64,000 bases of DNA from an uncultured cyanobacterium. GTDB taxonomy: Bacteria; Cyanobacteriota; Cyanobacteriia; Cyanobacteriales; CAWCAG01. Below are positions 34,089-38,799 of the stretch, in pieces. The stretch's first letter is position 1, and each line of letters opens with the position of its first letter. The notes under the pieces were generated by a model, which did not search any database, had not been told where the DNA came from, and saw nothing but the letters and a program-made list of their open reading frames with translations. Made by a program: the position numbers and the translations under genes. The stretch covers positions 896,001 to 960,000 of the forward strand of contig CAWCAG010000007.1 of NCBI GenBank assembly GCA_963793425.1, read 5' to 3'.

Positions 34089-34117
34089 TTGACTCATAAC
34101 AAACCTTTTGTTAGTGT
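34089..34117 (+). promoter_or_regulatory. Sigma70-type promoter of the DAHP synthase leader
   Basis: -35 TTGACT (34089-34094), 17-bp spacer, extended -10 TG-T-TAGTGT (34109-34117). Confidence 0.65.
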
Positions 34118-34146
34118 AAGCAAAGTTATTAAAATATTGCCAAATA

Positions 34147-34203
34147 ATGTTTTCCAGCTACCAGCATTTTTACTTTTGGTTTAAATTGGTTCGCCGCGAG
34201 TGA
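34147..34203 (+). CDS. Aromatic-rich attenuator leader peptide 1 (MFSSYQHFYFWFKLVRRE)
   Basis: ATG 34147 to TGA 34203; 4 Phe, 2 Tyr, 1 Trp, 1 His in the first 12 codons; 3' end is complementary to the downstream terminator arm. Confidence 0.75.
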   Translation: MFSSYQHFYFWFKLVRRE

Positions 34204-34231
34204 ATCTAGCTTAGTCTGGAATCTCCCGGTG

Positions 34232-34261
34232 GACTGTAGAACTGAAACTACAGTCTTTTTT
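34232..34261 (+). terminator. Attenuator terminator 1
   Basis: GACTGTAG-AACTGAAA-CTACAGTC followed by T6; competing antiterminator 34187-34200 : 34223-34236. Confidence 0.8.
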
Positions 34262-34285
34262 ATTGCTCAACAATTGCTAAATCCC

Positions 34286-34342
34286 ATGAGTTTCTACTTT
34301 TATCACTTTCACTTTTTTTGGACTAGAGAAAGTTCCGGGTAG
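34286..34342 (+). CDS. Aromatic-rich attenuator leader peptide 2 (MSFYFYHFHFFWTRESSG)
   Basis: ATG 34286 to TAG 34342; codons 3-12 are 5 Phe, 2 Tyr, 2 His, 1 Trp without interruption. Confidence 0.82.
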   Translation: MSFYFYHFHFFWTRESSG

Positions 34343-34366
34343 ATAGCCTCATGCCATTATTTTATC

Positions 34367-34400
34367 AAGCCTGGAACTAAATCAAGTTCCGGGCTTTTTT
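34367..34400 (+). terminator. Attenuator terminator 2
   Basis: AAGCCTGGAACT-AAATCA-AGTTCCGGGCTT plus T-tract, 38 nt before the DAHP synthase ATG; antiterminator copy AGTTCCGGGT at 34331-34340. Confidence 0.85.
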
Positions 34401-34438
34401 CTGATCCTACCGCTATAAATTCAAGGAATAATTGCTTC

Positions 34439-35296
34439 ATGTTGAATGCCAAACTCGCTCTCAAATCACAATTCCAACCCACCAGTCTCATCAACATATC
34501 GGATCAAGTTACTATCGGTGGTTCGGAAATTGTCATTATTGGTGGCCCCTGTGCTGTAGAAAATTTAGAGCAAATGGAGACAGTTGCGGAAAAATTGATA
34601 CCAGATTCAGTACAAGCTTTACGGGGTGGAGTATATAAACCCCGTACTTCTCCCTACTCTTTCCAAGGATTAGGACAAGAAGGATTAGATATTTTCGCTG
34701 CTATTAAAAACCGCTGGAATATATCTATTGTTTCCGAAGTTATGGCTGTCAGTCAAATTGAAGAGATGAGCGCTTGTGTGGATATGTTTCAAGTTGGTAG
34801 CCGTAATATGCAAAACTTCGATTTGTTGAAAGCTTTAGGGCAAGCCGGGAAGCCAGTATTGCTGAAACGAGGTTTGGCTGCCACCCTCGAAGAATTTATT
34901 TTCGCAGCAGAATACATTCTAAGTCACGGTAACCCCCAAGTTGTTTTTTGCGAAAGAGGTATCCGCAGCTTTGATAATTACACTCGCAATGTTTTAGATT
35001 TAGGTACGGTAGCAGCTTTGAAACAGTTAACTCACTTACCTGTAATTGTTGATCCTTCCCATGCTGCTGGGAGAAGGGAATTAATTGCTCCTTTGGCTAA
35101 GGCTGCGATCGCCTGTGGTGCTGATGGTTTGATTGTTGAATGTCACCCCAACCCTACTGAGTCTGTTTCTGATGCTAGCCAAGCTCTTGCTTTAGAAGAG
35201 ATGGTGAGTCTGGTTGATGCTCTCAAACCTGTTGCCACAGCAGTAGGGCGTACCATAGCAACTTCACCACGTAGTCGTGAACTTTCTTTAGTTTAA
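34439..35296 (+). CDS. aroF: 3-deoxy-7-phosphoheptulonate (DAHP) synthase, type I-beta, without N-terminal regulatory domain
   Basis: GGPCAVE, RGGVYKPRTSPYSFQG, QVGSRNMQNF, CERGIR, VDPSH; only 285 aa. Confidence 0.93.
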   Translation: MLNAKLALKSQFQPTSLINISDQVTIGGSEIVIIGGPCAVENLEQMETVAEKLIPDSVQALRGGVYKPRTSPYSFQGLGQEGLDIFAAIKNRWNISIVSEVMAVSQIEEMSACVDMFQVGSRNMQNFDLLKALGQAGKPVLLKRGLAATLEEFIFAAEYILSHGNPQVVFCERGIRSFDNYTRNVLDLGTVAALKQLTHLPVIVDPSHAAGRRELIAPLAKAAIACGADGLIVECHPNPTESVSDASQALALEEMVSLVDALKPVATAVGRTIATSPRSRELSLV

Positions 35297-35348
35297 TTTT
35301 CGGGTTGGCAGCTTCCTCTATGCAACATTCAGCCTCTGCCAACCTTGA

Positions 35349-37557: not shown

Positions 37558-38799
37558 GTGAGCGCCACTACCAACACTGCGGTTTATACCGACTCTCAAC
37601 AACCTGATGCTTTAGGAAGATTTGGACGTTTCGGGGGTAAGTATGTACCGGAAACTTTGATGCCGGCTTTAAGTGAGTTAGAAACTGCTTATAGTCAATA
37701 TCGTCAAGATCCTGACTTTGTTAAAGAGTTACAAGGACTACTGCGAGATTATGTCGGTAGACCTAGCCCTTTATATTTTGCCCAACGCCTTAGCGATCTC
37801 TACACCAAATCTGACGGTACAGGGCCGCAAATCTATCTTAAACGAGAAGATTTAAACCATACCGGGGCCCATAAAATCAATAATGCTTTGGCTCAAATTT
37901 TGTTGGCTAAGCGTATGGGAAAGCAACGTATTATTGCTGAAACCGGGGCAGGACAACATGGCGTAGCTACAGCAACAGTGTGCGCCCGCTTTGGTTTGTC
38001 ATGTGTAATTTACATGGGGGAACAGGATATGGAACGCCAAGCCCTCAATGTTTTTCGGATGCGCTTGTTAGATGCAAAAGTGCAACCGGTAACGGCCGGT
38101 ACTGGTACTTTAAAAGATGCTACTTCAGAAGCGATTCGAGATTGGGTTACTAATGTGGAGAATACTCATTATATTCTCGGTTCTGTAGCTGGGCCTCATC
38201 CTTATCCGAGAATTGTTAGAGATTTCCATGCCGTTATTGGTCAAGAGACTCGCCAGCAATGCCAGGAAAGATGGGGTGGATTACCTGATATTCTCATGGC
38301 TTGCGTAGGGGGTGGTTCCAATGCCATGGGTTTATTTGCTGAATTTGTTAAAGATGCTTCTGTAAGGATGATTGGTGTCGAAGCAGCAGGAGAAGGTACG
38401 GAAACCGAGAAACACGCTGCCACCCTGACTAAAGGCCGTCCAGGGGTGTTACATGGGGCAATGAGCTATTTATTACAGGATGGTGAAGGGCAAGTTGTTG
38501 AAGCTCATTCGATTAGTGCTGGGTTAGATTATCCTGGAGTTGGGCCAGAACATAGTTACCTCAAGGATACCCAACGGGCAGAATATTACAGCGTTACTGA
38601 TGCTGAAGCAGTGGAGGCTTTTGTGCGGGTATCGAAGCTAGAAGGAATTATCCCTGCTTTAGAAACTGCCCATGCTTTTGCTTATTTAGAAACTCTTTGT
38701 CTTCAGTTGACTGGCAGCCCTAAAATTGTAATTAACTGTTCGGGACGCGGGGATAAGGATGTGAGGACGGTGGCTAAGTATTTAGGGAAGGAATGGTAA
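37558..38799 (+). CDS. trpB: Tryptophan synthase beta chain
   Basis: [54 protein letters not shown]. Confidence 0.98.

Follow-up and report, generated by a model that had tools for sequence, protein, structure and literature searches.

Two putative aromatic amino acid attenuators in series upstream of a short DAHP synthase gene in a cyanobacterium

How might a cell control an enzyme of aromatic amino acid biosynthesis that lacks a regulatory domain of its own? The question is raised by a locus in an uncultured member of the Cyanobacteriales, contained in a 64,000-nucleotide (nt) stretch of contig CAWCAG010000007.1 (assembly GCA_963793425.1, positions 896,001 to 960,000) that we refer to as the window and whose numbering and + strand are used throughout. 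[quoted passage not shown] It is very likely, in our judgement, that two classical ribosome-mediated transcription attenuators arranged in series control this extra, probably feedback-free enzyme. We infer the attenuator function of both modules from sequence, conservation and a folding model.

The leader carries a conserved predicted promoter and two conserved leader ORFs. In both, a run of codons for Phe, Tyr and Trp lies some six codons ahead of the stop; each module also has a predicted antiterminator that overlaps the last codons of the upstream ORF (uORF) and excludes an intrinsic terminator. In module 1, uORF1 (34147-34203; ATG 34147, TGA 34203) encodes a leader peptide of 18 codons whose run of aromatic residues ends at F12; its family motif is YFYFW..VHRE. 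A protector (1:2) hairpin is predicted at 34152-34221 (-20.5 kcal/mol); in antiterminator 1 (34188-34235) residues 34188-34196 pair with 34227-34235 (-20.4 kcal/mol), which blocks the base of terminator 1 (34231-34261), a 9-bp stem at 34231-34256 followed by T residues to 34261. In module 2, uORF2 (34286-34342; ATG 34286, TAG 34342) likewise has 18 codons, its run ends at W12 and its family motif is WFYGFYFW..SSG. The predicted protector (1:2) hairpin lies at 34286-34352 (-14.3 kcal/mol, z -1.1), and antiterminator 2 (34331-34378), formed by pairing of 34331-34340 with 34369-34378 (-16.4 kcal/mol), occupies nearly all of the 5' arm of terminator 2 (34367-34400), whose 12-bp stem (34367-34396) is followed by T residues to 34400. 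A Shine-Dalgarno-like AAGGA (34423-34427) precedes the DAHP synthase gene and lies outside terminator 2. A first-pass annotation of this DNA had described two 18-codon uORFs and two terminators with the DAHP synthase ATG after the second; its coordinates and translations hold, as does its proposal that the 3' end of each uORF pairs with the 5' arm of the following terminator, since in each module a competing helix joins the two. The modules fold with energies of -32.6 kcal/mol (z -3.1) and -33.6 kcal/mol (z -4.6) respectively.

Transcription is predicted to start from a sigma-70-type promoter at 34089-34117 on the + strand, with a -35 box TTGACT, a 17-nt spacer and an extended -10 element TG.TAGTGT. 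This promoter, also proposed in the first-pass annotation, is missing from the list returned by a consensus scanner, and its -10 box matches the consensus at 3 of 6 positions; the same pattern nevertheless recurs ahead of uORF1 in 47 of the 52 non-redundant homologues, compared with 3.6% of shuffled sequences. An Rfam scan of the window gave five matches at E values up to 5, all far under the gathering scores and none to a leader family. Within the genome the two uORFs belong to a small group, with at least seven Phe, Trp, Tyr or His in ten residues occurring in 43 of 46,059 ATG-started ORFs of 10-30 codons, both uORFs among them. A third ORF (34351-34380), in the loop of antiterminator 2, was also considered and set aside, neither its frame nor its length being conserved.

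Comparison with homologous leaders indicates that the reading frames of both uORFs are conserved. The comparison used a short-clade set of 131 loci (127 distinct, the window included), 18 distant loci of less than 60% identity being left unscored, and the reading frame was assessed by anchoring on the RNA helices rather than on the ORFs, which left 9 of the 127 loci unanchored for module 1 and 14 for module 2. Start, aromatic run and stop share one frame in 115 of 118 anchored loci for uORF1 (0 and 1 in the other two frames) and in 106 of 113 for uORF2 (0 and 3). Phe, Tyr and Trp are all present in 51 of 52 non-redundant uORF1 peptides and 51 of 53 uORF2 peptides, and the stop follows the last aromatic codon at a distance of six codons in 36 of the 50 homologues for uORF1 and in 43 of the 53 for uORF2. 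Where a codon of the run departs from the consensus it is still aromatic in 80 of 89 cases in module 1 and 105 of 130 in module 2, where single changes made at random would give 21 and 25.5, a test that is partly circular, the set having been picked for aromatic content, and in which kin are not independent.

The nature of this conservation bears on which amino acids are read. The leaders had been described initially as rich in Phe, Tyr, Trp and His; the first three are conserved, whereas His is confined to the lineage of the window and does not behave as a regulatory codon. Its presence in the aromatic run is sporadic: a genome of the same genus keeps one of the three His residues, with Asp and Tyr at the other two, and family-wide the corresponding columns hold Tyr, Phe or Gly. 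A conserved His close to the end of uORF1 falls within the antiterminator arm. Sensing of His, as in a hisL-like component, was rejected because the His codons of the run are not conserved across homologues.

The same peptides could be thought to act themselves: they might arrest the ribosome in the manner of TnaC, by binding a free amino acid within its tunnel, or be small partners of the enzyme. Their lengths (17-21 codons) and the YFYFW and FYFW motifs are indeed strongly conserved. Phe, Tyr and Trp interchange freely within the run, however, the N-terminal residues are highly variable, and those C-terminal residues that are conserved map onto the antiterminator arm; moreover, arrest on an excess of amino acid would turn a biosynthetic gene on, which is the wrong sign. 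We regard action by the peptides as highly improbable.

Alignments of sequences less than 90% identical (50 for module 1, after two rows in which a shorter ORF had been picked were dropped, and 53 for module 2) show that the competing helices are preserved by compensating changes. In antiterminator 1, 94% of cells are paired and there are 46 two-sided changes against 12.8 in shuffles; in the lower helix of terminator 1 the values are 99.7% and 15 against 3.3. For module 2, antiterminator 2 is 87% paired (27 two-sided changes against 10.3) and terminator 2 is 93.6% paired (47 against 12.6). All four helices also exceed slid controls, both in paired cells and in two-sided changes, so that covarying stems, put forward beforehand as a check on the attenuators, are present. 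At one position of module 2 three strands, shared between antiterminator and terminator, covary together in 9 of the 53 sequences. RNAalifold, run unaided, recovers both the terminator and the upper part of the antiterminator in module 1, and the terminator alone in module 2.

This result also bears on another proposal, in which the hairpins do no more than damp expression, as constitutive terminators or small RNAs, and the aromatic ORFs arise incidentally from U-rich sequence. The codons for Phe and Tyr are rich in U by nature, most of the uORFs lack a Shine-Dalgarno sequence, and the terminators prevail in equilibrium folds, as described below. A constitutive terminator, however, has no use for a covarying antiterminator; the start, run and stop almost never occur in frames other than the shared one; and the Trp codon, which contains G, is retained. 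We give this proposal almost no weight, less than any other considered here.

Can the position of a ribosome on each uORF decide between the two helices of an attenuator? The alternative structures that the first-pass annotation suggested folding do exist in each module, as an antiterminator fold and a terminator fold. In a model in which the ribosome footprint is forced to be unpaired on the nascent RNA, and which considers equilibrium only, the probability of the antiterminator in module 1 is 1.00 with the A site at any position up to F12, 0.22 at K13 and 0 beyond. In module 2 it stays at 1.00 as far as T13, drops to 0.67 at R14 and is 0 at E15 and beyond. Since the antiterminator is lost at K13 and at R14-E15, the switch point in the model sits just past the last aromatic codon. 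E. coli trpL, pheL and pheM share a geometry in which a leader peptide with cognate codons is combined with a protector, an antiterminator and an intrinsic terminator. The likeness to trpL and pheL that had been noted at the outset is borne out by the uORFs, antiterminators, terminators and modelled ribosome-position switch; a protector is predicted in each module, its covariation modest at best.

A detector that makes no use of the family motifs was applied to the 600 nt upstream of each gene; it sought 10-35-codon ORFs in which four or more of seven residues are Phe, Tyr or Trp and after which a terminator comes 5-70 nt later. At least one module was found in all 131 short-clade leaders, confirming the expectation of conserved aromatic-rich uORFs ahead of orthologous genes; 106 have two modules (one of these was scored as three through a double call) and 25 have one. 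Leaders of the long paralogue, described below, gave no module in any of 31 cases with the same detector. As background, only one of 3461 long ORFs in the genome is preceded by two modules, namely the DAHP synthase at 34439, and nine have a single chance module. Covariance models applied to 17 of the 25 single-module loci found both modules in 7, module 1 only in 4 and module 2 only in 4, and two Acidobacteria among the 17 match the model of neither module; the other 8, inspected by eye, are explained by modules that the filter missed, by the ends of contigs or by damage to a module. Among the Melainabacteria, one locus has two modules by the detector rule and another by the covariance models.

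Across 141 genomes of the order, the module-1 and module-2 models match 44 and 49 genomes, both matching in 41, and neither model ever gives more than one match per genome. Thirteen stretches around model matches, from 12 genomes, were inspected, and 10 contain a DAHP synthase; the other three are a module 1 at a contig end, with module 2 and the gene on another contig, a decayed leader, and a weak match. No other use of the modules was found in these 141 genomes. The weak match, to the module-2 model in G442 (E 9e-4), looks false, there being no DAHP synthase nearby. In the decayed leader (G435, L183:380-560) the promoter, antiterminator and terminator of module 1 are kept, the uORF has decayed, and the ORF downstream is unrelated, with no DAHP synthase. 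Loss of the uORF where no DAHP synthase follows supports the attenuator reading, as a single case.

The two modules do not appear to be products of a recent duplication, an origin that was considered and rejected: the longest repeat between them is 12 nt, with mismatches, and the leader is single-copy in the genome. As to a possible older duplication, the module-1 model scores 16-22 bits on module 2 and the module-2 model 13-20 bits on module 1, for which shared composition could suffice, and the two modules differ in how the antiterminator overlaps the terminator.

Several leaders show rearrangements. One module-2-only locus keeps module 1 farther upstream, past a TnpB-like insertion in uORF2; there (G164, L191:4104-5360) a 419-aa ORF, resembling an IS200/IS605-type TnpB by eye, lies within uORF2 and splits module 1 from the remainder of module 2. 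In G453 (L192, L193) a mobile-element-like end separates the two modules, and in G431 (L182) one is located upstream of uORF1. In L018, L094, L120, L081 and L082 the stop codon of uORF2 is lost or shifted, and the frame reads into or past terminator 2; either would alter the logic of module 2. The two Acidobacteria (L095 and L096, from Chloracidobacterium and Blastocatellia) have a distinct leader of one module ahead of a DAHP synthase; it combines a run of Trp, Tyr and Phe with a strong terminator and lies roughly 200 nt upstream of the match, and in L096 the gene is followed by anthranilate synthase.

What, then, is the enzyme that would be placed under this control? The 285-aa product is a short type I-beta DAHP synthase (TIGR01361, PRK08673, PF00793) that scores above curated cut-offs (349 bits against 267.75 for TIGR01361 and 383 against 335 for PRK08673), and the solved structures nearest to it are DAHP synthases. 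Elsewhere in the genome is a 352-aa paralogue, 48% identical to it. Pfam finds the catalytic domain PF00793 alone in the short protein and additionally PF18152, an N-terminal ferredoxin-like domain, in the paralogue; the comparison of Pfam domains shows neither PF18152 nor a chorismate-mutase regulatory domain in the 285-aa protein. PF18152 is the allosteric domain of type I-beta DAHP synthases, and the short enzyme, lacking a regulatory domain, is probably free of feedback inhibition. A separate 81-codon fragment that resembles the C-terminus of DAHP synthase (G000:C9:1067264-1067506, in L145) lies downstream of the long paralogue, at a distance of about 0.8 kb.

Short-form matches occur in 64 of 401 genomes of the phylum, that of the window included, at 61% identity or more and E values of 5e-116 or better; the next class of matches starts at E 1e-90, leaving a gap. 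The long form is co-present in 34 of 37 short-form genomes tested, and we conclude that the short form is usually an additional copy beside the long one. In a quickly built tree (89 rows, midpoint root) with Shimodaira-Hasegawa-like approximate likelihood-ratio test (SH-aLRT) support only, the short forms of oxygenic lineages (SH-aLRT 93) cluster with those of three Melainabacteria (98), and two Acidobacteria adjoin them; this topology fits an old inheritance of the short form. No long same-strand ORF starts within 250 nt after the gene at 101 of the 131 loci, in some through missing sequence. Dehydroquinase II, chorismate mutase or anthranilate synthase is encoded directly after it in three distant relatives, two of them Melainabacteria and the third an Acidobacterium.

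Taken together, these features suggest the following mechanism. When charged tRNA-Phe, tRNA-Tyr and tRNA-Trp are plentiful, the ribosome would reach the stop codon of the uORF and cover the 5' arm of the antiterminator, allowing the terminator to form and transcription to end near 34261, or near 34400 for RNA that escapes the first terminator. If any one of the three charged tRNAs were short, the ribosome would stall on the aromatic run, the antiterminator would form and the polymerase would read through; expression of the gene would require passage of both gates. Such double gating may bring the steeper response and lower leak that the first-pass annotation proposed, but seven loci have just one module. 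The long paralogue, with its regulatory domain, would carry the everyday, feedback-inhibited flux, and the short copy would be a reserve under transcriptional control. We put at about even the chances of a broader view, in which leader-peptide attenuation works in the Cyanobacteriota, is old and shared with the non-photosynthetic Melainabacteria, and the serial modules, by multiplying their read-through probabilities, form a tight and steep switch responsive to each of the three aromatics, in place of allosteric feedback on a second DAHP synthase.

The identity of the signal can be questioned. U is the first base of every Phe, Tyr and Trp codon, and the tRNAs that decode them are modified by MiaA; the switches might sense ribosome speed on U-starting codons generally, through tRNA modification, translation rate, light-dark changes or nitrogen status, with aromatic supply playing a minor part. 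The folding model is compatible with this, in that any stall ahead of the switch point opens the switch, and one paper, in its accessible portion, ties MiaA to trp attenuation. Against it, the run is restricted to Phe, Tyr and Trp and makes no use of other U-starting codons (Ser, Cys, Leu), it is precisely these three amino acids that the controlled gene helps to make, and more genes of the aromatic pathway lie downstream in distant relatives. We consider a general sensor of this kind improbable and prefer attenuation by aromatic tRNA charging.

A number of observations nevertheless weigh against this preferred reading. The contrast with ribosome position, sharp in the window, is weaker across homologues in the same model: for module 1 the antiterminator is held in 50 of 50 homologues, then in 7 of 50 four codons on, with 20 of 50 still holding it at the stop, and for module 2 it is held in 38 of 53 at the last aromatic codon, falling to 16, with 19 of 53 at the stop. 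On the full-length leader the terminator wins the equilibrium at nearly every ribosome position, from which it follows that the decision must be kinetic, as it also is in E. coli attenuators. On nascent RNA without a ribosome the antiterminator is favoured at equilibrium, and the outcome of an AUG-null mutation is therefore not confidently predicted. Translation signals are sparse, with a Shine-Dalgarno-like motif at 2 of 52 uORF1 and 11 of 53 uORF2, compared with 46 of 53 main genes; both uORFs of the window lack one, and the AUG of uORF1 is covered there by a weak hairpin (-3.9 kcal/mol). In the module-1 protector the core pairs covary no more than shuffles do, and in that of module 2 modestly (89% paired, 17 two-sided changes against 6.0). 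Seven single-module loci imply that the second gate is dispensable in some lineages, and module 2 lacks a stop, a start or a U tract in several loci. Finally, the homologues are kin, and the counts overstate their independence.

The surroundings of the gene were also examined. Between the DAHP synthase gene and a convergent gene for a DUF2973 protein there is a hairpin at 35300-35348 (-17.1 kcal/mol) that is not followed by a U tract on the + strand. The gene for tryptophan synthase beta (trpB, 37558-38799) is on the same strand 2.3 kb downstream of DAHP synthase; an operon with trpB (37558) was considered and ruled out by the intervening opposite-strand genes. The genome-wide module detector finds no leader module upstream of trpB.

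A conserved and covarying case of this kind would make the steering of transcription by translation directly testable in a phylum without Rho; Cyanobacteria are described as lacking Rho in the accessible text of PMC13613805. If the attenuators work as proposed, they are a native reporter of whether the position of a ribosome can steer RNA polymerase in cyanobacteria. The locus also suggests why many large cyanobacteria retain a second DAHP synthase that lacks a regulatory domain, namely for control by the amount of enzyme rather than by feedback, and for strain engineering it would offer a native enzyme that is probably free of feedback together with a ready-made sensor of aromatic amino acids.

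The mechanism itself is textbook knowledge, and attenuators of DAHP synthase and tandem attenuators each have a precedent. What sets the locus apart is the combination of a very probable doubled attenuator, the reading of three aromatics, a phylum with no reported case and a paralogue that lacks a regulatory domain. The first-pass annotation had known of no description of leader-peptide attenuation for this pathway in cyanobacteria, and literature searches turned up no case; nor was any cyanobacterial leader-peptide attenuator report found, in a search of mostly open-access papers that left supplements of Ribo-seq and Term-seq studies outside its reach. A 2016 survey of leader genes, in the part accessible, calls reliable attenuation data in cyanobacteria nonexistent (PMC4833913), and the accessible parts of PMC1173090, PMC7693272, PMC13613805, PMC3766115 and PMC11109978 make no mention of the element.

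Comparison with known systems, again as far as the accessible portions of the sources describe them, places the locus among aromatic attenuators. One of the closest is aroR-aroF of Corynebacterium glutamicum, in which an aromatic leader peptide with a Phe-Tyr-Phe sequence likewise precedes a DAHP synthase gene and stalling raises transcription (Neshat et al. 2014, via PMC11802643; PMC4046766). [quoted passage not shown] In Acholeplasma, uORFC-13-1 is a predicted uORF with a U run coding for Phe, located before an intrinsic terminator and with all its occurrences upstream of aroF (Brewer et al. 2021, PMC8632094); it is a single module, a prediction with 24 representatives from Acholeplasma and environmental DNA. 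The E. coli trpL, pheL and pheM leaders share the leader peptide, protector, antiterminator and intrinsic terminator with the cyanobacterial modules, but each has one module, reads one amino acid and serves a terminal branch (PMC11802643). For attenuators in tandem the precedent is the Salmonella mgtCBR leader, in which two uORF-dependent attenuators, mgtM and mgtP, respond to different signals (ATP and proline), act additively and have no intrinsic terminators (PMC3641672). Unlike these, the cyanobacterial pair presents the same codon classes in both modules, each with an intrinsic terminator of its own.
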